64,000 nt of DNA, taken from the NCBI GenBank assembly GCA_965153355.1, contig OZ231126.1, positions 38,316,001 to 38,380,000 of the forward strand. Reading direction: 5' to 3'. Positions 8,975 to 43,149 of this stretch are shown in pieces. Numbering within the stretch: the first letter of the stretch is position 1; the number at the start of each line of letters is the position of its first letter. The translations under genes were made by a program, and so were the position numbers. Origin of the DNA: Flaccisagitta enflata (lineage: Eukaryota). The notes below the pieces were generated by a model. The model ran no database searches and was not told the origin of the DNA. It worked only from the letters and a program-made list of their open reading frames with translations.

Positions 8975-9975
8975 TGTCACGAAGCATGGTCTTGCACCAA
9001 TTTTGTCTATTCTTACGGATTATTTGGTTTGTATTTAGGCCTTAGATTTTGATTTATTGATTGATATTTTGGTTATATTAAGATATTTTACTTAGATTTG
9101 ACCATTTTATTTAGACTGGCTTTTATCGTTTGCATTTATTACAGGTTTGAATTATTCTGGTTTCATTTATTGACATTGCTTAGATTTATTGATTGATTTA
9201 TTGCCTCGTTTATTCGTTTATTTCAGGCATTTATTGATTTGTCTGTCTGATTTGTCCTCATTTCGGTCCAAATTGTTCATGTTTGTCCGTATGATCTTTT
9301 CTTGCTTTGCATTTTGTTTCTGTCATGAATCTCCTGCGCCTTTTGTTATTTGGGCTATTTTAGACCAAATTCGTAGCGCCCTCATTTGACCATTATTTGC
9401 ATTTTTTACTGGCTGACGCAATTCGGCTTCGAAGATTCCATGATATTTTATCGCGTTCTAGAACTTTTTGTTGCTTATATACCGCCATTTTGCCGGCAAT
9501 ATTCTCACGGACTCTAGAGAGACGCTTCGAATTACTAAAAACTACGTTTCCGTATATTAAATAGACGATTTTTACCATTATTTGCATCGATACGAGCATT
9601 ATTGGGACGCTTTTCGACTTCCCTTAGCGCCAAACAAAGGTGAGAGCTTGGTTTGGGTCCGTATTTTTTATTATTTTTCCTGTACTTAGCCTTATTTTTC
9701 CTGTTTCCGGCTTATTTTCCCCGTATTTAGCCTCATATTTTGTCATTATTCTGTCATTATTTGGTCAGTATTTTGTCACTTTTAGTAGTATTCATTATCT
9801 CCTTTATTTTCACTGTCTTGCAGCTTTAACTAACTTCGACTACCGTTCAAATAAAAGAAGATTTCGTTACGATCGCTCTGTATTTGTTTGGGGATCGAGG
9901 TTTAGTCACGAGCGGCGCAGCCGCATACAGGAGAGCTAGAGGCATTGGGCATTTAGTTTAGTACACCAGAATACA
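8975..9975 (+). repeat. 5' LTR (1001 bp)
   Basis: TG...CA ends, AATAAA at 9850-9855. Matches 34644-35644 at a constant offset of 25669, and three ORF-track translations are identical between the copies. Confidence 0.95.
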
Positions 9976-9990
9976 GTTAAAGCTTTAAAT
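9976..9990 (+). promoter_or_regulatory. Non-canonical primer-binding site region
   Basis: gttaaagctttaaat directly follows the LTR-terminal CA, with no TGG. Conserved in the inverted copies ending at 29686 and 33238, and complementary to LTR 9822-9831. Confidence 0.5.
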
Positions 9991-10797
9991 AGCGCATGCC
10001 CTGGCTCTTTTGTGTGTGTCTATCGTTGATCAGAACCCACAAAGACAAAGAACCGTCCTCAATCTTCGCTCGATCGAATCAACGCCCAAAGTAATAAAGA
10101 AACCGACGCGACGATCAAGAATCAACTCGGAATCGATGCCCCACTTGGACACGTATCTCATGAGAGAAAAAAAAATCCAAACAGAAGAAGGAAACCTCGT
10201 AAACGCCGATCGAGTCTTCTCCGAGGTAGCGCGTGAACAGATCAACTTGCGTGAATAATTAGTAAATCAAACTGACAGTCCCCGCTCACCCGGTGACCAT
10301 CGGAAACACCGCATTTTGCACACGTGAATTTGCACATCCCTAGAAAGCTAGAAACATCATTTTCAAGGGTCTTCGTTCACGAAGAAACTTGATTGTCAGT
10401 CAGTGTCATTTTCAAGCAGTTACACGTCTTCTGCTGAGGTCCCTCGTTCGCGAGTGACCTCGGCTCGCTAGAAATCCTTGCTACTAGAATCTAGAATTTC
10501 GAAGAGCCCCTCACCGGGTGATTCGGTCCTCTGTTAGATTTTTAGAAACGCTTAATTTTCGAAGAACCCCTTTCCGGGTAATTCGGTCCCGTCAGTCAGA
10601 ACATCAGGCTAATAAGGATAACAGCTGATTAGGCCTCGGTAACCGAGGACTTTCAAGCTGAGATCTTACAGGTCATTAGGGACATTTTTTCAGAGCTCGT
10701 TTGCAGCTTTGATAACAAACAAATCTCGAGAGTTGGGCCTATTTTGGCACCTAAGTTCGAGTCTCTCTGTTCATCAGAGGGTTCTAAACAGTCCCGT

Positions 10798-10881
10798 ATG
10801 TCCCGCAGGCCCAAGGGCCGCGGGATGTACTTTCACGGGGACACTACGCCCGACGATCGCGGGATGTCAGTAGGAATCTAG
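10798..10881 (+). pseudogene. Truncated third variant of the ORF1 start (MSRRPKGRGMYF...) inside the leader
   Basis: Upstream DNA gggcctattttggcacctaagttcgagtctct resembles gggcctaaattggcacgtaaattcgagtctct before the ORF1a ATG. The peptide resembles MPRSPQGSGMY. Inverted copies at ~28503-28586 and ~32190-32270. Confidence 0.55.
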
Positions 10882-11641
10882 AGAGGAAAAGAATCAGTGA
10901 AAACAGAACCCTTAAAGCATGTAGTAGCTTGCGCGGCAAAACCTTAAATTCCAACGTAAAAAAAAGAAAAGAACTCGGAAAGGAAAGAAAAGAAAGAAGA
11001 AAGAAAGAAAAGAAAGAAAAAAAAGAAAGAAAAAAAAAGAAAGAAAAAAAAGAAAGAAAGAAAGAAAAGAAAGAAAAAGAAAGAAAGAAAAGAAAGAAAG
11101 AAAGAAAAGAAAAAAAAGAAAAAAAAAAAAAAGTAAAAAAAAAAAATAGAAAACACGAAGTCTCTCTGCCAACCCGAGGACGGAGAGCGGCCGTGCCCGC
11201 ACATCTGTAGCTCGGGCCAGTTCCGCAATCCTCTTCCTACTCAGAACTTAGAAAGACGAAGAAATGAAAGAAACTATGAATCAGAATTAAATTCGCAGAA
11301 CTTGGGAGGAAATAAAGAACTTGGAAAGAAAGAACTCGAAAGTTAGAAAGAACTCGAAAGTTAGAAAAAACTCGAAAGTTAGAATCCATTTGACCTGGGA
11401 AATAGAAGTATTTGTTATCAATGAAACTCAATTCAGTTGAGTTGATTCAGTTCTGCATCCTACATCAATTCAGTCAATTATGCCTCGGCATCCGAGGAAT
11501 TTTGGCTTGAGAGCAAGTAACTGTTAGAAAACTTTCTTAGAAGCTCGTCTATAGCTCTAAAACTTCAAAAAATGTCGAGGTGGGCCTAAATTGGCACGTA
11601 AATTCGAGTCTCTTTGCTAACCCAGAGAATAGCCCATCAAT

Positions 11642-14600
11642 ATGCCTCGCTCACCACAAGGTAGCGGGATGTATCATGAGGTTAGCCCCCAGCATAGCCG
11701 CTATTATGCTAGGATCCTTGTCGATGACGCCACCAAGACTTTGAGGGAATTCCTGATAGCTCACGGCTTGGCCAGAGACTATCCGGAGCCAAAGTTTAAG
11801 CAGAGGGCAAATGATCTATTCTCTCAGGTCCAAAAAATGAAATTCGAACTGATAGAATTACCCCCATCCTTTCCACCAGATGAACAACAAAGAATAGACT
11901 CACTGATAGGAAGGATTCAGAATGAATTAGAAGGACACCCAGCCTTTTACATTCCATCAAGCGGAAATACTGCAAGTAATCCTTCGCTTCCTGCCTTCCC
12001 AATTCAAAGGGCTCCACCCGTGGTTCCTCGCGTTCACCATTCCTCCCAATCCATCTCACAGAGTCCCCCTTCCCTCATCGCATTCAGCGATAATTCCCGA
12101 GTCTCCCATCAGTTACAAAACGAGCCTATGGCCAGTTCTGACCAAGTTGAATCAGTCATTTCCGATCGGTTCTTTGACCCGCTCAGTATTCCCTCACAAG
12201 TTGCCAGTTCCTTCGATGGCCTCTCCACCATTGCAACGGTATCACGTCAAACAAACCAAGCATCACGCACGTTACGGCCATCCAAAGAACCAACGATCCC
12301 ACTTGTGCTAGAAAACAACGCCCCTCACAGAAACCATGACCAGATTATTAGAGGTCAGAAATTAAATGAACGCAATCATCAAAAACACTTGCGCTATGAT
12401 GACGCGGTCAAACAGACTAAAATCAATTCTTTGAACGCAATTGCAGCCAACCTCAGTGCTGCGGTCGATTTAATGAGGGAACTGATAATCAATAATCCTC
12501 TCGACGAAACTCCTTCGAATCAGCAAAGACAGGGCCACACAGAAAGATTGGGTGAAAGCGATCCACACACTCCTGCATCAGATTCAGATTCAGATTCTGA
12601 TACAGATTCAGATTCTGATACAGATTCAGATTCTGATACAGATTCAGATTCAGATTCTTCGGCCGAATGTGGCCCTCCTCAGCCTCAGACTTTCTGTTCC
12701 CAGATCCAGTTTCGTACTCAACCGACTCAAACTGATCACTTACTGATACAGAATCAGAACTATGTTCCTCAGTCTCAATTTCATGACAATTCCGAACAGA
12801 CTATGTCTAATCAGAACCAATCCGAGCGCACTCAAGTTAGATCTGGACCACTTCTGGACTTGGCTTGTTATCAGCCTGCTCAGTCTCATTCTCGGCCTGC
12901 TCAGTCTCATTCGCGGCCTGCTCAGTCTCATTCGCGGCCTGCTCAGTCTCATTCGCGGCCTGCTCAGTCTCATTCGCGGCCTGCTCAGACTCTCATTCAC
13001 GGCCTGCTCAGTCTCATTCGGCCTGCTCAGTCTCATTCTCGGCCGGCTCAGACTGATTGCCAATTTGCTCTAATAGACTTGGGTACCTCTTCCCCCACTT
13101 GCAGCACCGCCAGATACAGACCACAGTCCCAATCACAACAGACTCAGCATTCAGCGCAAATAATCGAAAACCAAAATACATGGCGAGCGGCAGGGCCCAG
13201 CTCGTTTGAAGCTTGGGCGAGTTCCGCAAGCCAACCACAACCACACACCACCCAACCACAACCACAACCACAGAGTAGGGAAGTGGAAAACCTTGCAAGG
13301 CTTTTCTGTGGCAATCACGATTCTACTTCTGCTCAAAACTCAGTCCGGCCTAAAACTCATGCATCTTTGCCAACGCCACCCAAGTATTATGACCCCATAC
13401 TCAGATTACCCACTCCCTCTTGGGATTCACCACAACATCAAAATGTCAATCAACATTCAAGACAGATTGACTCAGACTCACCAACCCTTTTGCGCGCGTC
13501 TGGAGTGAGTTACGCACCATCATACGCCCAACCCGCTTTGTTTCATCCTACTCCAGTTAAGGTGCAGATAAGCCATGAATTATTTGCCTCATCAAAATTT
13601 GGGATGGTTGTGTTGGCTCAGTCAAACAATCAAAGTCAGTCTGAAGACTCTTTTACCGTCATTGGCCCTGAAAACGACATCGAAGGGGCAATAGAAATTT
13701 CCTCAGAAGAAGCCGTTGAGGCCAACTCAGAAGAAGCCGTTGAGGCCAACTCAGAAGAAGCCGTTGAGGCCAACTCAGAAGAAGCCGTTGAGGCCAACTC
13801 AGAAGAAGCCGTTGAGGCCAACTCAGAAGAAGCCGTTGAGGCCAATTCAGAAGAAGCTGTTGAGGCCAACTCAGAAGAAGCCGTTGAGGCCAACTCAGAA
13901 GAAGCCGTTGAGGCCAACTCAGAAGAAGCCGTTGAGGCCAACTCAGAAGAAGCCGTTGAGGCCAACTCAGAAGAAGCCGTTGAGGCCAACTCAGAAGAAG
14001 CCGTTGAGGCCAACTCTGACGCCGAGGCTCAAGATGACGCCGAGGCTCAAGATGACGCCGAGGCTCAAGATGACGCCGAGGCTCAAGATGACGCCGAGGC
14101 TCAAGATGACGCCGAGGCTCAAGATGACGCCGAGGCTCAAGATGACGCCGAGGCTCAAGATGACGCCGAGGCTCAAGATGACGCCGAGGCTCAAGATGAC
14201 GCCGAGGCTCAAGATGACGCCGAGGCTCAAGATGACGCCGAGGCTCAAGATGACGCCGAGGCTCGAGATGACGCCGAGGCTCGAGATGACGCCGAGGCTC
14301 AAGATGACGCCGAGGCTCAAGATGACGCCGAGGCTCAAGATGACGCCGAGGCTCAAGATGACGCCGAGGCTCAAGATGACGCCGAGGCTCAAGATGACGC
14401 CGAGGCTCAAGATGACGCCGAGGCTCAAGATGACGCCATAGCTCAAGATGACGCCATAGCTCAAGATGACGCCATAGCTCAAGATGACGCCATAGCTCAA
14501 GATGACGCCACAGCTCAAGATGACGCCATAGCTCAAGATGACGCCAGCTCAAGATGACGCCATAGCTCAAGATGACGCCTAGCTCAAGATGACGCCATAG

Positions 14601-14887
14601 CTCAAGATGACGCCTAAGCTCAAGATGACGCCATAGCTCAAGGTGACGCCATAGCTCAAGGTGACGCCATAGCTCAAGATGACGCCATAGCTCAAGATGA
14701 CGCCATAGCTCAAGATGACGCCATAGCTCAAGATGACGCCATAGCTCAAGATGACGCCATAGCTCAAGATGACGCCATAGCTCAAGATGACGCCATAGCT
14801 CAAGATGACGCCATAGCTCAAGATGACGCCATAGCTCAAGATGACGCCGAGGCTCAGGACAACTATGGCATCTCAGAACTCATTTAG
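11642..14887 (+). CDS. ORF1a: putative Gag-N-terminal-like helical domain, low-complexity linker and acidic repeat tail (EEAVEANS)n(DAEAQD)n
   Basis: 971-aa ORF 11642-14557 in gag position after the LTR and leader. Small indels in the repeat at ~14546-14580 break the frame; otherwise it would end ...QDNYGISELI* at 14885-14887. No capsid or zinc-knuckle motif recognised, so Gag identity is positional inference. Confidence 0.6.
13703..14860 (+). repeat. 24-bp then 18-bp tandem arrays (tcagaagaagccgttgaggccaac; gacgccgaggctcaagat / gacgccatagctcaagat)
   Basis: Directly visible head-to-tail repeats without spacers. Confidence 0.97.
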
Positions 14888-16305
14888 TCCATTTCTACGC
14901 AAACTTCAGTCTTAGTATCAGACTCACTTGTGCATTCACATTTAGAAATGAGGACAATTTGTAAATATTGTGCATTATTTTCATTTCTCTCTTAAATTAA
15001 TGCTCTCATTTTTTGAATGATATTTGCCTGACTCTACAAGCGCGTCACATTCCCTAACAAACATGATATTTGTGTGACTCTAAAGTGGGTCACCCTTCCT
15101 TACAACAAACTAAGTCTCTCAGATGACCATGTATTGTTGTGCAACCTTATGCAATCCCAATACTAATTTCATTTTAAAGGCTTACAATGCCCGCAAGAAA
15201 AATGAAATGAATGAAGGGACTTCATCATTTAGAAATTAATCCATGGATCATTTTAGAAACGAGTCATGCTTCACCATACAACTTGGTTAACCGGAAAACC
15301 AAGCATATGGTTTTGCACGCTAATGTGAACAATTCAATTCTACTTGCATAATTCTAGATGTGGGTTATGCTTGTAGAGCTTCAGAATTTTGAACCTTGGG
15401 ATCCCAAAAAAAAACTTAAGACCTCAGAACCTCAGAACCTCAGAACCTCTCCCACTCAGCTAAGTATGGCATGAAATCCTGAAGCCGCAGAGGCGAGTTG
15501 AAAACAACGTTGGATACTGTGCCTTAATGCTTAGAAGGGAAACCTCAGAACCTCAGAACCTCTCCCACATACCTTAGTATGGTATGCAATCCTGAAGCCG
15601 CAGAGGCGAGTCGGACGCGACGCTGGACACTGAGCCTTTGAGCTCAGAAGGGAACAACAGAAACAAAACAGAACCAAAACTTTGTAAGTGAAAATAAGTG
15701 GCAGTGCACTAGCTCGTCTGTAATTCGGGCGAGTTCCGCGAGTTTTCACTCTCGAGGTATCTCCATTGTAAATATCATCATTCATTTGTCTTCACCTTTA
15801 TTGATTATGAGAATTTAACCATTTGCCATCCCCGACATAGACGTTGGAATGATAAGATGAATTAATCCGGTAATCTTAGATTCAAATGACATGTCATAAC
15901 ATGTCTAAAAGAGACAAGAAAAAACAAACGAATCAGAACATACGAAAGAACAAGAAAATACAAACGAATCAGAAAGAAAATGAAACCAAAAGGAGAATCA
16001 AAATCAGAAGAAAAGTGGTATTACTTTCAGAACAAATTGAAAAGAACAACAGATAGAAGAAGAACAGAATGATACAGAACAGATAGAAAAAGAACAGAAT
16101 GAAAAAGAACAATCAAACGCGCCAGAACAGATAGAACCCGAAGAGTCCGTTCGCCGAATGAATGGAAATAACAATTGATTCGTTCAAATTGTTCGTTCGT
16201 CAAAGAGAAGCGGATTGAATAAACGATTCCGCTGAGAAGTTAATCGTTCTTGTCGTCGATGGATCATTGTCGTATTTTTCCCGCCATCGTCTTTGTTGTT
16301 GTTGC

Positions 16306-16341
<36 letters not shown>

Positions 16342-19052
16342 GTTGTTAATGTTGTTTTTGTTGTTAGTGTTGTTTTGTCGCTGATGTTGTTTTGTTGTTG
16401 ATGTTGTTTTGTTGTTAATGTTGTTTTTGTTGTTAGTGTTGTTTTGTCGTTGATGTTGTTTTGTTGTTGATGTTGTTTTGGTTGTTGATGTTGTTTTGTT
16501 GATGTTGTTTCGTTGTTGATGTTGTTTTCGTTGTTAGTGTTGTTTCGTTGTTGTTTTGTAGCCGTCTGGTTCGCGGAGCTGCTGCAATCTACATGGCGAG
16601 CGAGACTGCCGCTCACCATCTGGTGTGATTCTCGGTGATGAAGTCGCTGACAAAAGTTATTAAATGTTCAAATTTGTTGATGCTTGAAGACTTGAAGCCA
16701 ATATTGCATAAGAGATGAGTTTCAGGCTCGCGACTTCCGTCCACACATGTCATCAGCTTTACTAGCGCCTCCTCGCCACTGTCACCAATTTCTGTCTCGC
16801 GAAAACATCAATCAGTCCAATGATTCAGAGGTGGTTGAGCAATCAACTGTCATTTATGTAGCTGTCCCAAAATACCGCTTCGTGTCGGTCAGTCCGGGTT
16901 TGGCGATAGAGTTTGAGTTCTTCTAAATCTAATGTTTCATATTCTTTTTCTCCTATTTTGATTTCTAGCAAGTCTGGTTCTTTATTGTTTTCCTCTGTTT
17001 TGTCTCATTCTGTTTCTTTCTGTTCTGACTCACTAAATTGTTTTTTTTTCGATCTGCTCTGGTTCTATCTGTTCTGGCGCGCTTGATTGTTCTTTTTCAT
17101 TCTGTTCTTTTTCTATCTGTTCTGTATCATTCTGTTCTTCTTCTATCTGTTGTTCTTTTTCTATTTGTTCTGAAAGTAATACCACTTTTCTTCTGATTTT
17201 GATTCTCCTTTTGGTTCATTTTCCCCCTGATTCGTTTGTATTATCTTGTTCTTTCGTATGTTCTGATTCGTTTGTTTTTTCTTGTCTCTTTTAGACATGT
17301 TGTGACATGTCATTTGAATCTAAGATTACCGGATTAATTCATCTTATCATTCCAACGTCTATGTCGGGGATGGTAAATGATTAAATTCTCATAATCAATA
17401 AAGGTGAAGATAAATGAATGATGATATTTACAATGGAGATACTTTGAGAGTGAAACTTGCGGAACTTGCCCAAATTACAGACGAGCTAGTGCACTGCCTC
17501 TTATTTTCACTTACAAAGTTTTGGTTCTGTTTTGTTTCTGTTGTTCCCTTCTGAGCTCAAAGGCTCAGTGTCCAGCGTCGCGTCCGACTCGCCTCTGCGG
17601 CTTCAGGATTTCATACCATCTTAAGGTATGTGGGAGAGGTTCTGAGGTTTCCCTTCTAAGCATTAAGGCACAGTATCAAACGTTGTTTTCAACTCGCCTC
17701 TGCGGCTTCAGGATTTCATGCCATACTTAGCTGAGTGGGAGAGGTTCTGAGGTTCTAAGGTTCTGAGGTTCTGAGGTTCTGAGGTCTTAAGTTTTTTGGG
17801 ATCCCAAGGTTCAAAATTCTGAAGCTCTACAAGCATAACCCACATCTAGAATTATGCAAGTAGAATTGAATTGTTCACATTAGTATGCAAAACCATATGC
17901 TTGGTTTTCCGGTTAACCAAGTTGTATGGTGAAGCATGACTCGTTTCTAAAATGATCCATGGATTAATTTCTAAATGTTGAAGTCCCTTCATTCATTTCC
18001 TTTTTCTTGTGGGCATTGTGGGCCTTTAAATGAAATTAGTAATGGGATTGCATAAGGTTGCACAACAATACATGGTCATCTGAGAGACTTAAGTTTGTTG
18101 TAAGGAAGCGTGACCCACTTGTAGAGTCACGCGAATATCATGTTGTTTGTTAGGGAATGTGACCCGCTTGTAGAGTCACGCACATATCATGTTTCAGAGA
18201 GCATTAATTTAAGAGAGAAATGAAAATAATGCACAATATTTACAAATTGTCCTCATTTCTAAATGTGGATGCACAAGTGAGTCTGACACTAAGACTGAAG
18301 TTCGCGTAGAAATGGACTAAATGAGTTCTGAGATGCCATTGTTGTCCTGAGCCTCGGCTTCATCTTGAGCTATGGCGTCATCTTGAGCTATGGCGTCATC
18401 TTGAGCTGTGGCGTCACCTTGAGCTATGGCGTCACCTTGAGCTATGGCGTCATCTTGAGCTATGGCGTCATCTTGAGCCTCGGCGTCATCTTGAGCCTCG
18501 GCGTCATCTTGAGCCTCGGCGTCATCTTGAGCCTCGGCGTCATCTTGAGCCTCGGCGTCTTCTTGAGCCTCGGCGTCTTCTTGAGCCTCGGCGTCTTCTT
18601 GAGCCTCGGCGTCTTCTTGAGCCTCGGCGTCTTCTTGAGCCTCGGCGTCTTCTTGAGCCTCGGCGTCATCTTGAGCCTCGGCGTCATCTTGAGCTCGGCG
18701 TCATCTTGAGCCTCACTTGAGCCTCGGCGCATCTTGAGCCTCGGCGTCATCTTGAGCCTCGGCGTCATCTTGAGCCTCGGCCATCTTGAGCCTGGCGTCA
18801 TCTTGAGCTCGGCGTCATCTTGAGCCTCGGCGTCATTTTGAGCCTGGCGTCATCTTGAGCCTCGGCGTCATCTTGAGCCTCGGCGTCATCTTGAGCTCGG
18901 CGTCATCTTGAGCCTCGCGTCATCTTGAGCTCGGCGTCATCTTGAGCCTCGCGTCATCTTGAGCCTCGGCGTCATCTTGAGCCTCGGCGTCATCTTGAGC
19001 CTCGGCGTCATCTTGAGCCTCGGCGTCATCTTGAGCCTCGGCTTCTGAGTTG
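14005..19052. repeat. Large inverted repeat (arms ~14005-16138 and ~17061-19052, ~920-bp loop)
   Basis: 14852 gctcaggacaactatggcatctcagaactc pairs with 18323-18352. 16110-16138 aatcaaacgcgccagaacagatagaacc pairs with 17061-17088. Confidence 0.9.
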
Positions 19053-19789
19053 GCTCTGTTTGCACCTGTTTGGGACCTGCACCCTACTGTACTCGCTGCG
19101 GCTGTGGAGCTACTCGAGTCAGATGAATGATGATCAGGTTGACTGGATCGAGTTGGGTTGTGACGGGGTGGGGGTTCAATCTGACTTTGGTCAAAAATGG
19201 GGTTAGTTCGCTTGGGGTCATTGTTAAATTGAGGATTATCATGTGGCGGTGGCGGCGCCGGTAGAAGCGGCGGCGGCGCCGGTAGAGACGGCGGCGGCGC
19301 CGGTAGAGACGGCGGCGGCGCCGGTAGAGGTGGCGGCGGCGCCAGCGGAGGCGGCGCCAATGGTGGTGATGGCGGCGCTGATGGTGGCGGCGGCGCTGAT
19401 GGTGGCGGCGGTTTTGTAGCCGCAGTTCCGTCGAGGAAAGACTGAGTGAGAGTCGGATCAATAGCAACTAACGCTGGAATGTTATAGGCTGGATGACGTT
19501 CTAATGCGCACTGAATCAATCCTATCATGGTGTATATCGTTTCTTGTTCGTCTGAGGGGAAAGTTGGGGGTAATTTTGTAAGCTCACATTTCACCTCTTC
19601 GACCAGAGAGCGTAAATCATTCGCCCCTTTCTTAAATCGTGGTTTTGAATCGTCTCTGCCCATGTTGTGAACTCTCAGGAATTCCTGCATTAAGTCGGCA
19701 GCGTCACTGACAAGATCCTCGGCGTGACGGCTGACGTGTTTGGAGTCAACGTCATGATACGTCCCTTTACCCTGTGGTAAGCCAGACAT
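18317..19789 (-). CDS. ORF1b: divergent paralog of the ORF1 N-terminal domain with polyproline linker and the same DAEAQD tail
   Basis: The first ~105 aa align without gaps to ORF1a at about half identity by manual count (PQGxGxYH, EFL, RD, FK, ANDL, LPPxFPxDEQ, HPA). ORF track 18920-19789. The tail has several 1-nt indels and ends in the same GISELI*. Confidence 0.6.
18347..19052 (-). repeat. 18-bp tandem array, inverted copy
   Basis: ggcgtcatcttgagcctc units, with many 1-nt indels at ~18690-18960. Confidence 0.95.
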
Positions 19790-20413
19790 ATTGACGGGTT
19801 ACTTTCTGGGGTGAGCAGAGATTTGGACGATAAAATCGCCCTTCCGGAAGTCCTCAGTTTCCGAGGCGTAATCGGCGAAAATCTAGCTGATGCAGGACTC
19901 ATCGGGAGTTAATGATCTCGCTATTTTAGGTCAAGGTTTTACCAGCCGAAGTTAGGGAACGGGTCCCTGTGGCAGAGATGGAACTGGCGACGTGATTCTA
20001 TTCACTGTCTTTTTCACTTTATTTTCTATCTTTTATGCTCCTCGTTTACTCTTTTTCTTTTTATCTTTTGGGATTCTTTTTAACTTTCGAGTTCTTTCTT
20101 TCCAAGTTCTCTATTTCCTTACAAATTCTGCGAATATTATCTCTGACTCATAGTTTCTTTCATTTCTTCAACTTTCTAAGTTCTGAGTAGAAACAAATCG
20201 CGGAACTGGCCCGAGCTACAGACGAGCGGGCACGGCCGCTCTCCGTCCTCGGTTTGGCAGGGTGACTTCGTGTTTTCTATTTTTCTTTTAATTTTTTTTT
20301 TCTTTTTCTAATTCTTTCTTTCCGAGTATTTCTTCTTTTCTTTTTCTTTTCTTTTTCTTTTCTTTTTCTTCCTTTTCTTTTTCTTTTTCTTTTATTCGTC
20401 CTCTCCTTGGCCT

Positions 20414-21982: not shown

Positions 21983-22602
21983 AGAACACAGTGGGATCGT
22001 CGACCCACGGGAGGACGCGTGTAATAGAATCATTTCATTTAGACTATGTTTTACAGTCAGTCGTGAGTTTCACATTTCAGTAATTAGTATTGAGTTCTGA
22101 GGTTTCCCTTCTAAGCATTAAGGCACAGTATCCAACGTTGTTTTCAACTCGCCTCTGCGGCTTCAGGATTTCATGCCATACTTAGCTGAGTGGGAGAGGT
22201 TCTGAGGTTCTAAGGTTCTGAGGTTCTGAGGTCTTAAGTTTTTTGGGATCCCAAGGTTCAAAATTCTGAAGCTCTACAAGCATAACCCACATCTAGAATT
22301 ATGCAAGTAGAATTGAATTGTTCACATTAGTATGCAAAACCATATGCTTGGTTTTCCGGTTAACCAAGTTGTATGGTGAAGCAAAACTCGTTTCTAAAAT
22401 GATCCATGGATTAATTTTTAAATAATGAAGTCACTTCATTCACTTCATTTTTCTTGCGGGCATTGTGGGCCTTTAAAATGAAATTAGCGATTTTATCTGA
22501 ATTTCTATCAAATGATGCGCAATATTTACAAATTGTCCCTATTTCTAAATGTCCATGCACAAGTGAGTCTGATACTAAGACTGAAGTTTGCGTAGAAATG
22601 GA

Positions 22603-25600: not shown

Positions 25601-27761
25601 TGGCCTCGGCATCTGAGTTGGCCTCGGCATCTGAGTTGGCCTCGGCATCTGAGTTGGCCTCGGCATCTGAGTTGGCCTCGGCATCTGAGTTGGCCTCGGC
25701 ATCTGAGTTGGCCTCGGCATCTTTTGTGGAAATATCTATTGCCCCTTTGATGTGGTTTTCATGGCCAAGGACGGTAGAAGAGTCTTCAGACTGACTTTGA
25801 TTGTTTGACTGAGCCCATACAGCCGTCCCAAATTTTGATGACGCAAATAATTCATGGCTTATCTGCACCTTAACCGGAGTAGGATGAAACAAAGCGGGCT
25901 GGGCGTATGATGGTGCGTAACTCACTCCAGATGCGCGCAAAAGGGTTGGTGAGTCCGAGTCAATCTGTCTGGAATGTTGATTGACATTTTGACGTTGTGG
26001 TGAATCCCAAGAGGGAGTGGGTAATCTGAGTATGGGGTCATAATACGTGGGAGGCTCTGGCCAAGATGCATGAGTTTTAGGCCGGACTGAGTTTTGAGCA
26101 GAAGTAGAATCGCGATTGCCACAGAAAAGCCTTGCAAGGTTTTCCACTTCCCTACTCTGTGGTTGTGGTTGGGTGGTGTGTGGTTGTGGTTGGCTTGCGG
26201 AACTCGCCCAAGCTTCAAGCGAGCTGGGCCCTGCCGCTCGCCATGAATTTTGGTTTTCGATTATTTGCGCTGAATGCTGAGTCTGTTGTGATTGGGACTG
26301 TGGTCTGTATCCGTCTGTGTCTAGCTGTGGTCTGTATCTGGCGGTGCTGCAAGTGGGGGAAGAGGTACCCAAGTCTATTAGAGCAAATTGGCAATCAGTC
26401 TGAGCCGGCCGAGAATGAGACTGAGCTGGCCGAGAATGAGACTGAGTAGGCCGAGAATGAGACTGAGCAGACTGAGAATGAGGCTGAGCAGGCTGATAAC
26501 AAGCCAAGTCCAGAAGTGGTCCAGATCGATCTTGGGTGCGCTCAGATTGGTTCTGATTAGACATAGTCTGTTCAGAATTGTCATGAAATTGAGACTGAGG
26601 AACATAGTTCTGATTCTGTATCAGTAAGTGATCAGTTTGAGTCTGTTGAGTACGAAACTGGATCTGGGAACAGAAAGTCTGAGGCTGAGGAGGGCTACAT
26701 TCGGCCGAAGAACCTGAATCTGAATCTGTATCAGAATCTGAATCTGTATCAGAATCTGAATCTGTATCAGAATCTGAATCTGTATCAGAATCTGAATCTG
26801 TATCAGAATCTGAATCTGAATCTGAAGCAGGAGTGTGTGGATGACTTTCACCCAATCTTTCTGTGTGGCCCTGTCTTTGCTGATTCAAAGGAGTTTCGTC
26901 GAGAGGATTATTGATTATCAGTTCCCTCATTAAATCGACCGCAGCACTGAGGTTGGCTGCAATTGCGTTCAAAGAATTGATTTTAGTCTGTTTGACCGCG
27001 TCATCATAGCGCAAGTGTTTTTGATGATTGCGTTCATTTAATTTCTGACCTCTAATAATCTGGTCATGGTTTCTGTGAGGGGCGTTGTTTTCTAGCACAA
27101 GTGGGATCGTTGGTTCTTTGGACGGCCGTAACGTGCGTGATGCTTGGTTTGTTTGACGTGATACCGTTGCAATGGTGGAGAGGCCATCGAAGGAACTGGC
27201 AACTTGTGAGGGAATACCGAGCGGGTCAAAGAACCAATTGGAAATGACTGATTCAACTTGGTCAGAACTGGCCATAGGCTCGTTTTGTAACTGATGGGAG
27301 ACTCGGGAATTATCGCTGAATGCGATGAGGGAAGGGGGACTCTGTGAGATGGATCGTGAGGAATGGTGAACGCGAGAAATCACGGGTGGAGCCCTTTCAA
27401 TTGGGAAGGCGGGAAGCGAGGGATTATTTGCAGTATTTCCGCTTGATGGAATGTAAAGGGCTGGGTGTCCTTCTAATTCATTCTGAATCCTTCCTATCAG
27501 TGAGTCTATTCTTTGTTGTTCATCTGGTGGAAAGGATGGGGGTAATTCTATCAGTTCGAATTTCATTTTTTGGACCTGAGAAAATAGATCATTTGCCCTC
27601 TGCTTAAACTTTGGCTCCGGATAGTCTCTGGCCAAGCCGTGAGCTATCAGGAATTCCCTCAAAGTCTTGGTGGCGTCATCGACAAGGATCCTAGCATAAT
27701 CGCGGCTATGCTGGGGGCTAACCTCATGATACATCCCGCTACCTTGTGGTGAGCGAGGCAT
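22603..27761 (-). CDS. ORF1a': inverted second copy of ORF1a with a ~3.1-kb acidic 18-bp repeat tail
   Basis: N-terminal ~680 aa nearly identical to 11642+. Three small deletions at ~25135-25200 (1+1+2 nt) shift the frame. Restored, it ends DAIAQDNNGISELI* at 22603. Confidence 0.6.
22633..25720 (-). repeat. ~3.1-kb 18-bp tandem array arranged in blocks of variant units
   Basis: Successive blocks encode DAEANS, EAEANS, EAEAHS, DVEAHS, DAEAQD and DAIAQD in the restored frame. Confidence 0.97.
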
Positions 27762-29686
27762 ATTGATGGGCTATTCTCTGGGTTAGCAAAGAGACTCGAA
27801 CTTGCTTGCCAATTTAGGCCCACCTCGTCATTTTTTGAAGTTTTAGAGCTATAGACGAGCTCTTAAGAAAGTTTTCTAACAGTTACTTGCTCCCAAGCCA
27901 AAATTCCTCGGATGCCGAGGCATAATTGACTGAATTGATGTAGGATGCAGAACTGAATCAACTCAACTGAATTGAGTTTCATTGATAACAAATACTTCTA
28001 TTTCCCAGGTCAAATGGATTCTAACTTTCGAGTTTTTTCTAAATTTCGAGTTCTTTCTAACTTTCGAGTTCTTTCTTTCCAAGTTCTTTATTTCCTTCCA
28101 AGTTCTGCGAATTTAATTCTGATTCATAGTTTCTTTCATTTCTTCGTCGTTCTGAGTAGGAACAGGATTGCGGAACTGGCCCGAGCTACAGACGTGCGGG
28201 CACGGCCGCTCTCCGTCCTCGGGTTGGCAAAGAGACTTCGTGTTTTCTATTTTTTTTCACTTTTTCTTTTTTTTTCTTTTCTAATTTTTTTTCCGAATAT
28301 TCTTTCTTTTCTTTTTCGTTCTTTTCTTTTTCGTTCTTTTCTTTTTCTTCTTCTTTATCTTTCGCGTCTTTTTTTCCTACTGTTCTCTTTCTTTCTTTCT
28401 ACCTTTCCGAGTTCTTTTCTTTTTTTACGTTGGAATTTAAGGTTTTGCCGCGCAAGCTACTACATGCTTTAAGGGTTCTGTTTTCACTGATTCTTTTCCT
28501 CTCTAGATTCCAACTGACATCCCGCGATCGTCGGGCGTAGTGTCCCCGTGAAAGTACATCCCGCGGCCCTTGGGCCTGCGGGACATACGGGACTGTTTAG
28601 AACCCTCTGATGAACAGAGAGACTCGAACTTAGGTGCCAAAATAGGCCCAACTCTCGAGATTTGTTTGTTATCAAAGCTGCAAACGAGCTCTGAAAAAAT
28701 GTCCCTAATAATTACTAACGATCTCAAGTTGATGATCCTCGGTGACCGAGGCGTAATCAACAAGAATGAACTGAGTGCAGAACCGAGTCAGTTCGATTAA
28801 ATCGAGTTCCTCGGTAAACTGCGCCTTTAAGGTTCCTGATGATTTCTGACAGATGCTCGATGTTCTCAGTCCGAAGGTCCTCGATTATTCCATTGTTCCT
28901 TTCATTAAATTCGCTGACTGACTAATGGTCCAAATTACCCGGTGAGGGGTTCTTCGTGAAGTTGACGATTCTAAAATCTAGTAATCCTGACTAACTGACA
29001 AGGCCGAATTACCCGGTGAAGGGTTCTTCGAAAAAATAGACGTTTCTAAAAATCTAGGTGATCTGACTGACTGACAGGGGGACGAATTACCCGGTGTGGG
29101 GTTCTTCGAGTTTCTAGTTTCTAGTAGAATGGATTTCTAGCTAGCCGAGGTCACTCGCGAACGAGGGACCTCAGCAGAAGACTGCTAAATGCTTGTAATT
29201 GACTAACTGACAATTCAAGTTCCTTCGGTGACCGAAGATCCTTGAATATTAATGGTACTAGCTTGCTAGATTGTGCAAATCGACGTGTGCAAATGCGGGT
29301 GCTTTCCGATGGTCACCGGGTGAGCGGGGACTGTCGGTCTGATTTTCTAATTACTCGCGTAAGTTTTTCTGTTCACGCGTTGCCTCGGAGAAGAAAGACT
29401 CGGTCGAGTATTTCTCCGTCTTCTGTTCAGATTTCTTTTTTTGTGAGATACGTGTCTTTGTTCTTGATCGCGTGAGTTTCTTGGTTACGTTGGGCATCGA
29501 TTCTGAGCTGATTCTCGATCGGTTTCTTCTTGATCAATTTGGGCGTTAATTCTGAGTGGGTTCTTGATCGTCGTCGAATACTCACCAATCGAGCGAACAT
29601 TGAGGACGGTTCTTTGTCTTCTTGGGTTCTGATCAACGATAGACACACACAAAAGAGCCAGGGCATGCGCTATTAAAAGCTTTAAC
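27762..29686 (-). repeat. Inverted 5' leader of the internal unit
   Basis: Reverse complement of 9976-11641 with an extra ~200-bp segment. Confidence 0.88.
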
Positions 29687-30741
29687 TGTATTGTCGTGTA
29701 CTAAACTAATGCCCAATGCCTCTAGCTCTCCTGTATGCGGCTGCGCCGCTCGTGACTGAACCTCAATCCCACGAATAATACAGAGCGATCTCAATGCGAT
29801 CTTCTTTTATTTGAACGTAGGCGAAGCAGTTAAAGCTGCAAGACAGTGAAAAATGAAAGGAGCTAATGAAAATGCAGCTAAATATACAGATATCTAGCCA
29901 GAAATACTCAATAATACTGAAAGTGACCAAATACTGAACGAATAATGACGGAATAATGACGGAATAATGACAAAAATACGGGAAAAATAAGCCGTAAACG
30001 GGAAAAATATGGCTAAGTACGGGAAAAATAATACGAAATATGAACCCAAATCAAGCTCTCACCTTTGTTTGGCGCTCAGGGAAGTCAAATAGGCGTCCTA
30101 ATAAGGCTCGTATCAGTGCAAAATATGGTGAAAAGCGTCTATTTAATAGGCGAAAGAGTAGTTTTTAGCAATATGAGCGTCTTTTCTAGATTCTGTAAGG
30201 AAATATCGTCGGCAAAATGGCGGTAACTAAGCAACGAAAGGTTCTAGAAAATCATAGAATTCTATGGAAATCTTCAATTTCCCTTCGAGGTTCGATTGCG
30301 TCAGCCAGTAAAAATGCCAATATCGGTCAATTGAGGGCGCTACGAAATCGGTCTAAAATAGCCCAAATGACAAAAGGCGCAATGAATTCATAACAGGAAC
30401 GAAATGCAAGGCAAGAAAATATCATACGGACAAACATGAGCAATTTGGACAGAAATAAGGACAAATCAGACGGACAAATCAATAGATGCATGAAATAAAC
30501 GAATAAATGAGTCAATAAATCAATCAATAAATCTAAACGATGTCAATAAATGCGATCAGAATAAATCAAACCTGTAATAAATGCAAACGATAAAAACCAA
30601 TCTAAATAAAACGGTCAAATCTAAGTAAAATATCTAAATATAATCAAAAATATCAATCAATAAATCCAAATCTAAGGCCTAAATACCAACCAGATAATCC
30701 GTAAGAAATGATAGAATTGGTGCAAGACCATGCTTCACGAC
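29687..30741 (-). repeat. Internal inverted, diverged LTR of the same family
   Basis: Reverse complement of the terminal LTR with many substitutions and indels. It ends in ...ATACA followed by the same gttaaagct site. The first T of the TG terminus is missing at the junction with the La cassette. Confidence 0.9.
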
Positions 30742-30758
30742 TCGTTCAAATTGTTCGT

Positions 30759-31862
30759 TCATCGAAGAGAAGCGGATTCGACCTTCATCGGTTCGGACTT
30801 CGGCTCGGCCTTGGCATCGTTACGCTTATGGAAACCGCCTCCGCCGCCTCCGCCGCCTCCACGGCCGCCGCGACCGCCTCTTCCGCCGCCGCGACCTCCT
30901 CTGCCGCCTCGGCCGGCATCGCGTCTGCTCTGATGGTCGCGTCGGAATTCCTCCCAGTATTCCGTCTCTTCCTCTCCTTCCAACAATTTGAGCTCTAGCT
31001 CTTTCTCCTCGATGGTGATTTTGCCTTCTAATTGTTTGATAACGTCGGCCGCGGAATTCTCTCCGTTGAATCGCACTTTTATGGTCGACTCCTCTTTGTT
31101 CACCGTCACCCAAGCAACTTTTTTCTCCGCGGTCTCTGAAAAGGCCGATTTGACGGCGTTGACGTCGAGGCCTTGGATGTCGGCGTTGACAATTTTAAGA
31201 ACGGCGGCTTTCTCTTTCACGCCAATTTCCTCTTTTTTCGGCGCCGATTCTTTGGATTTTCCACCGTGTCTCTTTTCTTTTAACTCGGCGTTCTTCGCCG
31301 TCAAGTAGTCTTTTTGGAATTGGATAATGAGATCTTCTGCGTCGTCTTCTTTGAATTTCTTACAGTCTGAAGACAAGATTTTGTTGCAATCGTCCACGGA
31401 CTTGTACGTGACGAAAATCGAACCCTTGAACTGAGACTTTTCCTTGATTCGTCTCATGAAAACATTCTCGGACATGCAGACTTTGTCGACGAAAGGAATG
31501 ATGTCGTCCAAAGAGGCCGTCACCGGAAAGCCCTTCATGTAAAGAGTTCTGCTCTGAACTTCGTCCTTCCAATTGCTGTCCACGACGGGAATCTTTCTTT
31601 CTGGATTGCGTCTGATTTTGCTCTTGTCTTCGTTAACCTCGAGCAAGCCGCTGGAAGATTTTGTGAGAGCGTCCGCGATCACCGCTTCCTCCTTTGATAA
31701 CTGAGCCAAACGGTTGAATTTCAGCATGACTTCCAAGGATATCCATCCCTCGTCCTTCTTGATCTCTTCCTGTAAGAACTTATCGCGACCGAGGTTGTGA
31801 TCGCCGAAATAATATTCAACTTGTCTGATAATTTTCGACTCGAGTTCTGAAATGACCGCCAT
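30759..31862 (-). CDS. La: Intronless La (SSB, lupus autoantigen) homolog captured inside the LTR element
   Basis: La motif (KIIRQVEYYFGDHNL.RDKFL...GWISLEVMLKFNRL), RRM1 (RTLYMKGFP, FKGSIFVTY), an RRM2-like region and an RGG-rich basic tail. 367 aa, uninterrupted. The last codons and stop lie in element-derived sequence. Confidence 0.93.
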   Translation of the reverse strand: MAVISELESKIIRQVEYYFGDHNLGRDKFLQEEIKKDEGWISLEVMLKFNRLAQLSKEEAVIADALTKSSSGLLEVNEDKSKIRRNPERKIPVVDSNWKDEVQSRTLYMKGFPVTASLDDIIPFVDKVCMSENVFMRRIKEKSQFKGSIFVTYKSVDDCNKILSSDCKKFKEDDAEDLIIQFQKDYLTAKNAELKEKRHGGKSKESAPKKEEIGVKEKAAVLKIVNADIQGLDVNAVKSAFSETAEKKVAWVTVNKEESTIKVRFNGENSAADVIKQLEGKITIEEKELELKLLEGEEETEYWEEFRRDHQSRRDAGRGGRGGRGGGRGGRGGRGGGGGGGGGFHKRNDAKAEPKSEPMKVESASLR

Positions 31863-31964
31863 GATTATTGGATAATGACCGGATGGACGGCGTTGTTCAA
31901 AATAAGAAAACTGATAATGGTCTCCTTTATTTTAAACAAGTGAAGTAGTAGAAATTAGCTCAGT

Positions 31965-33240
31965 TTAATTTTTTTTTTCTTTTTCTAATTCTTTCTTTCC
32001 GAGTATTTCTTTTCTTTTCTTTTTTCTTTCTTTTTCTTTTCTTTTCTTTTCTTTTCTTTCTTTCTTTCTTTCTTTCTTTTCTTTTTCTTTTTTCTTTTTC
32101 TTTCTTTCTTTTCGTTGGAATTAAAGGTTTTGCCGCGCGAGCTACTACATGCTTAAAGGGTTCTGTTTTCACTGATTTTTTTCCTCTCTAGATTCAAACT
32201 GACATCGTGCGATCGTCGGGCGTAGTGTCCCCGTGAAAGTACATCCCGCGGCCCTTGAGCCTGCGGGACATACGGGACTGTTTAGAACCCTCTGATGAAC
32301 AGAGAGACTCGAACTTAGGTGCCAAAATAGGCCCAACTCTCGAGATTTGTTCTGAGATTAAAGCTACAAACGAGCTTTAAAATGCCTTAAATGACGTGTG
32401 ATCTCAGCTTGAAAGTCCTCGGTTACCAAGGCCTAATCAGCTGTTGTCCTTGACTTGATGTCCTGACTGACTGACAGGGCCGAATTACCCGGTGAAGGGT
32501 TCTTCGAAAAAATAGACGTTTCTAAAAATCTAGGTGATCTGACTGACTGACAGGGCCGAATTACCCGGTGAAGGGTTCTTCGAAAAAATAGACGTTTTTA
32601 AAAATCTAGGTGATCTGACTGACTGACAGGGGGATGAATTACCCGGTGTGGGGTTCTTCGAGTTTCTAGTTTCTAGTAGAATGGATTTCTAGCTAGCCGA
32701 GGTCACTCGCGAACGAGGGACCTCAGCAGAAGACTGCTAAATGCTTGTAATTGACTAACTGACAATTCAAGTTCCTTCGGTGACCGAAGATCCTTGAATA
32801 TTAATGGTACTAGCTTGCTAGATTGTGCAAATAGACGTGTGCAAATGCGGGTGCTTTCCGATGGTCACCGGGTGAGCGGGGACTGTCGGTCTGATTTTCT
32901 AATTACTCGCGTAAGTTTTTCTGTTCACGCGTTGCCTCGGAGAAGAAAGACTCGGTCGAGTATTTCTCCGTCTTCTGTTCAGATTTCTTTTTTTGTGAGA
33001 TACGTGTCTTTGTTCTTGATCGCGTGAGTTTCTTGGTTACGTTGGGCATCGATTCTGAGCTGATTCTCGATCGGTTTCTTCTTGATCAATTTGGGCGTTA
33101 ATTCTGAGTGGGTTCTTGATCGTCGTTGAATACTCACCAATCGAGCGAACATTGAGGACGGTTCTTTGTCTTCTTGGGTTCTGATCAACGATAGACACAC
33201 ACAAAAGAGCCAGGGCATGCGCTATTAAAAGCTTTAACTG
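31965..33240 (-). repeat. Inverted copy of the element 5' leader placed upstream of La
   Basis: Near-identical to 28430-29688 (offset 3552 over its distal part). Starts with the LTR-terminal CA and gttaaagct. Confidence 0.88.
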
Positions 33241-33259
33241 ACGCTTTCTTGTTCTTTTT

Positions 33260-34629
33260 CTGAACAAATCGAAAAAGAACAGATAGAAGAACAGAATGAT
33301 ACAGAACAAATAGAAGAACAGAATGATACAGAACAAATAGAAAAAGAACAGAATTAAAAAGAACAATCAAACGCGCCAGAACAGATAGACACAGAACAGA
33401 TCAAAAAAGAACAATTTAGCGAGTCAGAACAGAAAGTAACAGAACAAGACAAAACAGAAGAAAACAATGAAGAACCAGACTTGCTAGAAATCAAAATAGG
33501 AGAAGAAGAATATGAAACATTACATTTAGAAGAAGAGTTAGGGATTGACAGGGACCTTCCTCTCAACCCGTACAGAACAAATCGTCACAGTACCCGAGGA
33601 AGGAGAACATTATGGCATGTGGAACGACGAAGTCTACCACACACTCTGTCGGCAAACCTGGATTGACTGACACGAAGCGGCATTTTGGGACAGCTACATA
33701 AATGACAGTTGATTGCTCAACCACCTCTGAATCATTGCACTGATTAATGTTTTCGCGAGACAGAAATTGGTGACAGTGGCGAGGAGGGTGATTTGGCGCT
33801 AGTAAAGCTGATGACATGGGTGGACGGAAGTCGCGAGCCTGAAACTCATCTCTTATGCAATATTGGCTTCAAGTCTTCAAGCATCAACAAATTTGAACAT
33901 TTAGTAACTTTTGTCAGTGACATCACCAAGAATTATGCCAATGGTGAGCGGCAGTCTCATCTCGCTTTGAAGTTGGAGGAGTCCTGCGAACCAGATGGTA
34001 ACAACACTAACTACGAGACAACATTAACAACAAAGGACAACAACAATCTAACAACAACCATGGCGGGAAATCTACAACAATAATTCATCGACGACAAAGA
34101 ACAATTTACTTCTCAGCGGAATCGACTTATCAATCCGCTTTCCTTTGACGAACGAACAATTACAGCGAATCAATTCATATTTCCATTCATTCGGCGAACG
34201 GACTCTCCAGCGGATTAAATCAATCCGCGTTTCATCGATCGAAGCGCTTACTGCTAACTAACTCTGTCAAGACTACTTTTAACTAATGATCTAGCGCTTT
34301 TGGTCATCTCTCATCGACGATTTGAAGCTTTTGGTTCCGGCAAGATTCGAAAGATACAGATTCTCCCACCCCCCCACCCGCGCATACCAGTAACTAACTT
34401 AACACCTGAAACAACTAATAAACTCTATGTAGCTTGCGCACATTTGAATTGAATTATTAATGCGACGCAGAGCACAAGCGCTTTAAGAAGACGACGAAAG
34501 AATTTATTCTCAAGATTTCACTACACTGTGATATACTCCAATTGTTACTCAGGAAATTGGACAAGACCAGGCTTCTAGACTAGTTTAGTTTTTTCCCCAA
34601 ATTGGTATATTTCATATATGATTTGACTC
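33260..34629 (+). repeat. Non-coding 3' internal region of the element
   Basis: 33260-34207 is the reverse complement of ~16142-17172. 33260-33388 repeats 16027-16136 directly. Confidence 0.85.
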
Positions 34630-34643
34630 AAAAACGGGGGGAG
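34630..34643 (+). promoter_or_regulatory. Polypurine tract (plus-strand primer)
   Basis: Purine-rich run (A5-C-G6-AG) immediately 5' of the TG of the 3' LTR. Confidence 0.85.
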
Positions 34644-35644
34644 TGTCACGAAGCATGGTCTTGCACCAATTTTGTCTATTCTTACGGATTATTTGGTTTG
34701 TATTTAGGCCTTAGATTTTGATTTATTGATTGATATTTTGGTTATATTAAGATATTTTACTTAGATTTGACCATTTTATTTAGACTGGCTTTTATCGTTT
34801 GCATTTATTACAGGTTTGAATTATTCTGGTTTCATTTATTGACATTGCTTAGATTTATTGATTGATTTATTGCCTCGTTTATTCGTTTATTTCAGGCATT
34901 TATTGATTTGTCTGTCTGATTTGTCCTCATTTCGGTCCAAATTGTTCATGTTTGTCCGTATGATCTTTTCTTGCTTTGCATTTTGTTTCTGTCATGAATC
35001 TCCTGCGCCTTTTGTTATTTGGGCTATTTTAGACCAAATTCGTAGCGCCCTCATTTGACCATTATTTGCATTTTTTACTGGCTGACGCAATTCGGCTTCG
35101 AAGATTCCATGATATTTTATCGCGTTCTAGAACTTTTTGTTGCTTATATACCGCCATTTTGCCGGCAATATTCTCACGGACTCTAGAGAGACGCTTCGAA
35201 TTACTAAAAACTACGTTTCCGTATATTAAATAGACGATTTTTACCATTATTTGCATCGATACGAGCATTATTGGGACGCTTTTCGACTTCCCTTAGCGCC
35301 AAACAAAGGTGAGAGCTTGGTTTGGGTCCGTATTTTTTATTATTTTTCCTGTACTTAGCCTTATTTTTCCTGTTTCCGGCTTATTTTCCCCGTATTTAGC
35401 CTCATATTTTGTCATTATTCTGTCATTATTTGGTCAGTATTTTGTCACTTTTAGTAGTATTCATTATCTCCTTTATTTTCACTGTCTTGCAGCTTTAACT
35501 AACTTCGACTACCGTTCAAATAAAAGAAGATTTCGTTACGATCGCTCTGTATTTGTTTGGGGATCGAGGTTTAGTCACGAGCGGCGCAGCCGCATACAGG
35601 AGAGCTAGAGGCATTGGGCATTTAGTTTAGTACACCAGAATACA
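34644..35644 (+). repeat. 3' LTR (1001 bp)
   Basis: Copy of 8975-9975, preceded by the PPT and followed by TSD GATGA. Confidence 0.95.
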
Positions 35645-35676
35645 GATGACCTATACTTTCACACATATGGGGTATT

Positions 35677-35708
<32 letters not shown>

Positions 35709-35715
35709 CTCCTCC

Positions 35716-35747
<32 letters not shown>

Positions 35748-42269: not shown

Positions 42270-42364
42270 TAGCTACCAGTATTTGAACTGTAAAATGGAA
42301 GCGGAAGCTGTGGAAGCGGTATTAAAATTGACGGCTTCCACATCCCTGCTAGCAAGTCACAAAC

Positions 42365-43134: not shown

Positions 43135-43149
43135 CTGTGATCTTTTGTT

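Follow-up and report, generated by a model that had tools for sequence, protein, structure and literature searches.

Retrotransposons bounded by long terminal repeats (LTRs) are already known to capture host mRNAs, those of the BEL group included, and to occur as tandem units with one common LTR, and in this article I will discuss a locus in which both traits can be recognised inside a single insertion. The insertion occupies 26.7 kb (8975-35644) of a 64,000-nucleotide stretch of the chaetognath Flaccisagitta enflata (GenBank assembly GCA_965153355.1, contig OZ231126.1, positions 38,316,001 to 38,380,000; hereafter the window, in whose numbering all positions are given). Like BEL/Pao elements, it has LTRs of the TG...CA form, a 5-bp target site duplication (TSD) and a polypurine tract (PPT) (PMC3118150; papers are cited here by PMC number). 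Similarly, like the LTR-mediated retrocopies that include mosquito BEL18_AG and maize Bs1, it holds a truncated host mRNA between discontinuous element pieces, with a short overlap at a join, as in the template-switch model, and no poly(A) tail (PMC5131818). I give roughly even chances to the view that this insertion is a one-off composite cDNA, assembled through template switching, completed by reverse transcription and then integrated in one piece in trans.

The outer frame of the insertion supports, as far as sequence can tell, a young, non-autonomous, BEL/Pao-derived element. The two 1001-bp LTRs align with 0 mismatches (95% upper bound for divergence of the pair, 0.3%), and the identical LTRs, the GATGA TSD and the PPT described in the initial annotation are all confirmed; the join between PPT and 3' LTR is bridged by one contig record (record 15) of DNA run X2. 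Contigs of three DNA runs, X1, X2 and X3, were compared with the window over 25800-35678, with 24 of 2394 pieces listed; these contigs lose rare variants, and absence from them is weak evidence. In X1-X3, further copies of the outer LTR show 2-11 differences per 179-228 bp from the one in the window, and two random copies would differ as well, which argues that the identical pair was made together. Furthermore, copies of the flanking repeat at 8515 and 45471 in the window are uninterrupted and hold a single GATG(A/T)CCT at the equivalent point, and leftward from 35645, 7 X1 and 6 X2 contigs enter sequence resembling the 5' flank without an LTR, all of which supports a true TSD. The empty site that had been called reconstructable therefore stands in the form of single-site repeat copies in the window, X1 and X2, but these are paralogous members of the flanking repeat family and not an orthologous empty allele. 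The lack of reverse transcriptase (RT) noted at the outset also holds, since tblastn of the 1430-aa Pol protein P0121 matches the window by residues 906-1430 only (20405-21979) and 43 more Pol proteins match nothing in it outside 20000-22100 at E<=1e-4; with no RT, RNase H, protease or full Gag, the element is not autonomous. Two observations on the frame stand on their own: the target repeat (8500-8974 and 35645-35861) is very abundant, with inverted ends, 20-bp subrepeats and a summed contig depth above 90,000 in X1 and X2 (last bin); and U3 in both LTR types (8975-9975; 29687-30741) contains antisense AATAAA motifs, 11 in the outer and 9 in the inner, against 1 in sense, as if terminating antisense transcription.

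Inside this frame lies a copy of the host La/SSB gene, whose frame is open and uninterrupted, identical at 358 of 365 residues to the 423-aa protein P0001, with the match ending after residue 361. Immediately upstream of its 5' untranslated region (UTR), 31931-31960 are the last 30 nt of the spliced leader (SL) SL3.2 of F. enflata (Table 3 of PMC2481426), a match that was found 0 times in 100 shuffles of the window, and host La contigs in X1 and X3 cease to match at exactly 31930; in Paraspadella gotoi about half of the genes are trans-spliced (PMC12460157). The presence of SL3.2 at this position thus marks the La copy as derived from a mature, trans-spliced mRNA, and by itself points very probably to a chaetognath as host. 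At the 5' join three extra bases (31961-31963) lie between the SL and the A-rich tract of the element leader and there is no overlap, and at the 3' join the host-like match reaches 30772 and the element-like match 30778, giving a 7-bp overlap (30772-30778). La is not flanked by both LTRs: in its orientation only the downstream LTR is present, and on the upstream side its unit begins at the primer-binding site (PBS).

Masked self-BLAST bears out the order and orientation of blocks as first listed, in which copies of the same family lie inverted within the outer frame. The inner LTR is 88.8% identical to the outer LTR (ungapped), and the inner copies are 88-98% identical to one another and to the outer arms. 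The earlier contrast between diverged inner copies and undiverged outer LTRs is therefore correct as a measurement (88-98% against 0/1001), but by their sequences the inner copies are members of different subfamilies rather than decayed duplicates, so their divergence has no value for dating the composite. The outer arms, too, look like copies of different subfamilies and not the halves of one, as their overlap of about 110 bp contains 108 matches, 5 mismatches (95.6%) and a 24-nt indel, and relative to inverted copy b the left arm is 96.8-97.5% identical and the right arm 89.2-94.8%.

The junctions are the other part of the evidence. The LTR-end CA and the PBS position open the inverted block at 33240, and the inner LTR ends at 30741, one base inside U3, where the LTR in X3 contigs also ends; 2 of the 8-10 family-side junction ends thus fall within 2 nt of the ends of RT intermediates (PBS edge and U3 start); a rough estimate, made after the fact, puts the probability of this by chance at 1-2 in 10,000. 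The A-rich tract of the leader holds both the La join and the pol join, those at 16139 and 22093 are near-blunt, the composite joins share only 0-7 bp, and the inversion junction contains a perfect 11-bp hairpin (33250-33260 and 33271-33281) with a 10-nt loop. A simple nested insertion was considered and ruled out, since the inner block lacks its own TSD and terminal LTRs.

Given this block order, the family identities, the mRNA origin of La and the positions of the junctions, the switching, turn-round and insertion steps might have run as follows. The building block would be a family of Gag-remnant elements consisting of LTR, leader, truncated Gag with acidic array, 3' region, PPT and LTR, served by RT and integrase in trans. 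The RT would have jumped from the 3' region of this family onto La mRNA at the 7-bp overlap, copied it up to 3 nt from its trans-spliced 5' end and then returned to the A-rich tract of a leader. The growing strand could have turned round at the hairpin (33250-33281), with other subfamily members supplying the templates as minus-strand cDNAs or antisense RNA; entry of one template at its natural end, the PBS, followed by passage from LTR to PBS as in second-strand transfer, would yield the inverted run of leader, La, LTR, leader and ORF1a'. Further switches would have picked up the RNA 3' end of an autonomous relative and copy b before rejoining the left arm, and one completed round of reverse transcription and integrase-mediated insertion of 26.7 kb would account for the identical LTRs and the 5-bp TSD. 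Capture, turn-round and further switches may belong to different cycles.

The composite cDNA is favoured by the identical LTR pair, the junctions at RT-intermediate ends, the SL on La, the 7-bp overlap, the A-rich tract common to the La and pol joins and the unlike arms, and by the precedent of Tf1, in which cDNA gives rise to tandems with one common LTR (PMC11042837). Several points weigh against it: at least 5 templates are required, a high number for a single particle; no inversion can arise from switches between sense RNAs, making the turn-round an extra assumption; the mismatch between the arms lies partly within a fast-changing repeat region; and none of the X1-X3 pieces listed crosses any of the 4 inner joins within 25800-35678. 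Furthermore, cDNA ends captured into an integrated element would give equal junction positions, which leads to an unlikely explanation in which a young, simple element suffered a break in its repetitive 3' region and was repaired with cDNA and ectopic copies, through switches and foldback, gaining 17 kb. Such a patch would explain the inversion without one long cDNA; the hairpin and two near-blunt joins (16139, 22093) are similar to what foldback and templated insertion leave at breaks (PMC11724301), and Tf1 cDNA ends at the PBS and PPT do recombine into resident elements (PMC11042837). However, the right arm to at least 34206 is farther from copy b than the left arm and the overlap is imperfect, as not expected of halves of one copy, and the patch would be needed before the first LTR difference, within the upper bound given above. 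The initial annotation had offered only transposition as a unit or a recent patch; both keep a share of the probability, and assembly during reverse transcription, a third route, fits the junctions best.

The same annotation went on to propose a giant vehicle with fixed cargo, meaning a composite that was built earlier, transcribed as one 26.7-kb RNA and copied repeatedly in trans, and this is unsupported and, in my estimate, improbable. The outer frame does have all cis signals, the inner LTR, the inner PBS positions and their poly(A) signal are antisense and hence inert on the + strand, the integrase and La frames are open, and chimeric LTR retrocopies are able to move again (PMC5131818). 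Yet 9 of the 18 AATAAA motifs on the sense strand lie within 170 bp of the inverted inner LTR (30494-30659), the other nine being spread over the remaining 25.6 kb, so that a 26.7-kb sense transcript would end early if host poly(A) signal use is assumed, and the length exceeds the 2-15 kb bounds for full-length elements in BEL/Pao surveys (PMC3118150). No second copy of the composite junctions is found among the pieces listed (4 inner joins covered). At the listed La sites the entire contig depth carries the non-window, host-type letter (5 sites in X1 and 1 in X2) and an X1 La contig departs from the window at 30772, so the retrocopy is not seen in those runs, which counts weakly against a vehicle because rare variants are dropped. 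The building blocks themselves are common to the runs, covering 30 of 30 bins over 25800-35678 in X1 and X2 and 28 of 30 in X3; several inner blocks match other-run contigs at 0-3 differences per 299-358 bp, the summed depth of the inner LTR is 12-28 times that of La in X1 and X2 (summed depth not being copy number), and X1 depth is 15.5 at 33060-33389 compared with 338-387 over La. RNA run X12, which may be from another species, is uninformative on expression, with 11 partial reads, none at >=99% and none over the La body.

It is quite improbable, too, that the locus is an assembly or amplification artefact in which family copies were misjoined or a foldback chimera was retained. The lack of any piece across an inner join, among those listed, would agree with this, as would the 1-bp array indels, which are typical of long-read consensus error, and long tandem arrays are hard to assemble; but the joins share 0-7 bp, unlike the long repeats at which assemblers misjoin, the inverted blocks are 88-98% identical to their neighbours and not 100% as in single-molecule foldback chimeras, and LTR pair, TSD and flanks are consistent over 26.7 kb. 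Most improbable of all is a self-priming, readthrough BEL/Pao clade whose composites of about 27 kb, with antisense copies, integrase and SL-tagged mRNAs, move repeatedly. The composite cDNA is probably a dead end, a single accident rather than a system. The blocks are listed in Table 1.

Table 1. Blocks and signals of the composite insertion, in window positions
Feature	Position	Strand	Remarks
5' TSD GATGA	8970..8974	+	within high-copy host repeat
5' LTR, TG...CA	8975..9975	+	same sequence as 3' LTR
Candidate self-primer, 10 nt complementary to 9975-9984	9822..9831	+	inferred R start; AATAAA at 9850
Primer-binding position within long U5-leader stem	9975..9984	+	
Leader A	9976..11641	+	A-rich tract ~10978-11153
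ORF1a: Gag N-terminal three-helix domain, low-complexity region, acidic array	11642..14557	+	
Left arm, proximal 3' region	14860..16139	+	
Copy b, inverted 3' region	16140..18344	-	stops ~430 bp before PPT position
ORF1b: Gag N-terminal domain, Pro-rich stretch, 18-bp array	18345..19789	-	
Copy b, partial leader	19790..20393	-	begins within A-rich tract
BEL/Pao pol 3' part: integrase H2C2, core, DUF5641	20394..21982	+	open frame, first Met 20711
Donor 3' tail	21983..22093	+	purine run 22009-22015, TGT at 22020; LTR role inferred
Copy a', partial inverted 3' region	22094..22630	-	
ORF1a' with 3.1-kb 18-bp acidic array	22631..27761	-	frame breaks inside array
Copy a', primer-binding position and leader	27762..29686	-	vs leader A: 5' part 88%, 3' part 94-98%
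Inner LTR, other subfamily	29687..30741	-	first base missing, no PPT before it
Family 3' region, 37-bp piece linking La to inner LTR	30742..30778	-	
Host La/SSB retrocopy: 5' UTR and codons 1-361 of 423	30772..31930	-	ATG 31862; stop at 30759 from element sequence
Last 30 nt of spliced leader SL3.2	31931..31960	-	
Leader of La-bearing segment, from LTR/PBS boundary	31964..33240	-	CA alone of LTR
Inversion junction: short repeat-like piece and hairpin	33241..33281	.	
Right arm, distal 3' region	33262..34629	+	
PPT	34630..34643	+	
3' LTR	34644..35644	+	
3' TSD GATGA	35645..35649	+	

The single integrase block has a donor that can be placed. It corresponds to residues 902-1430 of P0121 with 519/529 identities (98%), and P0121 and P0123, which represent the donor, have the BEL/Pao Pol order of protease, RT, RNase H and integrase, with Peptidase_A17 and a C-terminal DUF5641; of these Pol domains the window itself carries integrase and DUF5641 only. 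Nothing else in the window matches the 111 bp after the integrase stop. They probably contain the beginning of an LTR that belongs to the donor (TGT at 22020), which makes the donor a member of a different family from the outer frame within the same clade. In a quick-search tree of 44 integrase regions, built from every second of the 43 closest relatives plus 21 sequences from outside and without named BEL, Pao, Tas, Suzu, Sinbad, Dan or Flow references, the window and 21 relatives fall on one side of a branch (Shimodaira-Hasegawa-like approximate likelihood ratio support, 99), and the integrase has no matches in viral contigs. Pol proteins of this clade begin at or inside the protease, and at one locus, L001, Gag and Pol form a single frame split by one TGA, then CTG (1040-1050), which suggests that Pol is made by stop-codon readthrough in the BEL/Pao clade to which L001 belongs; TGA-CTG is a readthrough-type context. 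Also of note in this block, the inverted A-rich leader tract (20273-20711, + strand) places a 120-nt pyrimidine run just 5' of the integrase frame, and an AG at about 20430 together with Met 20711, which would give a 423-aa product with the whole integrase, may allow acceptor-driven expression.

The three remaining open frames, ORF1a, ORF1a' and ORF1b, have in common a 110-residue N-terminal domain in which a' is 98% and b 47% identical to ORF1a, and whose structural model is a three-helix bundle with a predicted local distance difference test score of 81. The model has no match in PDB at E<=0.001, and no match to the domain appeared in a word-indexed search of longer proteins, viral contigs or the ESM Atlas, but a full search with a hidden Markov model gave 22 relatives, 15 of which were inspected as sequences. 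One of these, P0257 (1114 aa), has an ORF1-type N-terminus followed by a capsid-like region and by three Cys-His motifs, and among 120 proteins its C-terminal half matches BEL polyproteins (E down to 1.7e-17); it also matches the L001 Gag (1e-19). Since P0257 and the other relatives are BEL Gags, and the three frames correspond to residues 1-121 of them only, lacking the capsid and Cys-His (zinc knuckle) regions, ORF1a, a' and b are, by these matches, N-terminal remnants of a BEL/Pao Gag whose rear has been replaced by an acidic array. A Ty3/gypsy vehicle of the Tf1/sushi type with a foreign BEL integrase was dropped for the same reason, and the array matches to Gp5_trimer_C and Sigma54_AID, from a Pfam scan that covered 22 of 116 frames, were set aside as repeat artefacts. 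The ORF1a arrays consist of 24- and 18-bp units (13702-14856) and their frame breaks late in the array, and the array of copy b has many 1-bp indels, with 9 of 36 unit spacings deviating by 1-2 bases from the 18-bp period; frame breaks in fact occur in every acidic array and could be real decay or consensus error. All three arrays (13702-14856, 18345-19045 and 22631-25722) are closed in one frame by the same short end peptide. A 108-bp deletion in the copy b 3' region (16915-16918 compared with 33534-33643) recurs in X1 and X2 contigs and, slightly shifted, in X3, and therefore serves as a subfamily marker.

How such a family primes reverse transcription is a separate question. A TGG is absent from the 25 nt that follow each type of LTR, hence no TGG-type PBS, and I lean slightly towards Tf1-type, tRNA-free self-priming in this BEL/Pao family. 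The outer LTR contains a 10-nt complement to the primer-binding position 154 nt from the LTR end (reached in 1/1000 shuffles) and the inner LTR an 11-nt complement 151 nt from its end (0/1000 shuffles), each about 25 nt 5' of the single sense AATAAA, and U5 and leader fold into a long stem around the PBS position (z -4.7 and -3.7). Against this, forcing the pairing costs 13 and 17 kcal/mol over the pseudoknot-free minimum, the outer and inner copies are 94% alike at the primer region and so not independent, the covariation test showed no compensatory change, and the PBS region is itself palindromic; a half-tRNA primer may be the alternative. Searches for the PBS-leader motif in metagenome contigs and for the LTR start motif in viral contigs both returned 0, and of the 8 loci examined, out of 22, not one had a pair of LTRs that could serve to control for priming; the L002 repeat is coding. 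A conserved pyrimidine run ending in CAG (9808-9823, + strand, and at the equivalent site of the inner LTR) directly precedes the candidate self-primer and resembles a splice acceptor, at which, given that the host trans-splices, the element RNA might gain a spliced leader.

Elsewhere, an Rfam scan of 8500-36500 gave 0 matches and no tRNA genes were found in the window. Open frames of 268-408 aa outside the element (42161-43309, 49530-50441 and 61426-62652) have no Pfam match above the cut-off, and short, degenerate TTAGGG-type repeats occur within dispersed repeats at 4030-4095, 43180-43270 and 46118-46157.

If long reads confirm the locus, it records in one molecule how an mRNA was captured as far as its trans-spliced end, how the strand turned round, how a PBS was entered and how an LTR came to be shared, and, if the composite was inserted as proposed, BEL/Pao integrase would be able to insert cDNA of about twice the usual upper size. 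Self-priming in BEL/Pao, if true, would mean that tRNA-free priming arose independently once more, and the SL provides a simple tag for counting LTR-made retrocopies across chaetognath genomes. Should the composite exist as one dead copy only, it probably has little biological effect. A literature search, with most subscription journals outside its reach, found neither the inverted multi-unit layout, nor an SL-tagged capture inside an animal LTR element, nor self-priming in BEL/Pao, and the available part of the BEL/Pao survey makes no mention of primer binding (PMC3118150).

Compared with known systems, the relatives of the element are BEL/Pao members, with a Gag containing a capsid-like region and triple Cys-His motif and a Pol containing Peptidase_A17, H2C2 integrase and DUF5641, whereas the window element has no RT, protease, RNase H or complete Gag, is 26.7 kb long with a 17-kb inverted interior, and belongs to a clade with Pol after one in-frame TGA (L001) and no TGG-type PBS. 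The TR-GAG and LARD elements of plants combine LTRs and priming sites with an interior that is non-coding or derived from gag, and are moved in trans; here the Gag is an N-terminal remnant with an acidic array, the host is an animal and the interior is multi-unit and inverted. In contrast to other LTR-mediated retrocopies, the La copy keeps its trans-spliced leader, and its unit has lost PPT and 5' LTR and lies inverted inside a younger LTR frame. The cDNA-derived, integrase-independent tandems of Tf1/Tf2 similarly have two units with one common LTR and joins at PBS and PPT/U3 ends (PMC11042837), but they are head-to-tail and homology-driven, whereas the window tandem is inverted within an outer element and has little or no homology at its ends. 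The 10-11-nt PBS complement near the inferred start, the long U5-leader stem and the lack of a TGG are reminiscent of Tf1/sushi self-priming, which has been reported in Ty3/gypsy Tf1/sushi and Tcn1 and in Ty1/copia TAR (PMC7175516, PMC6317226), the window element being BEL/Pao. Finally, in dinoflagellates a genomic SL also marks an mRNA-derived gene copy (PMC5585692, PMC12014239, PMC6050394), but the copy described here sits inside the LTR element that made it, and in an animal.

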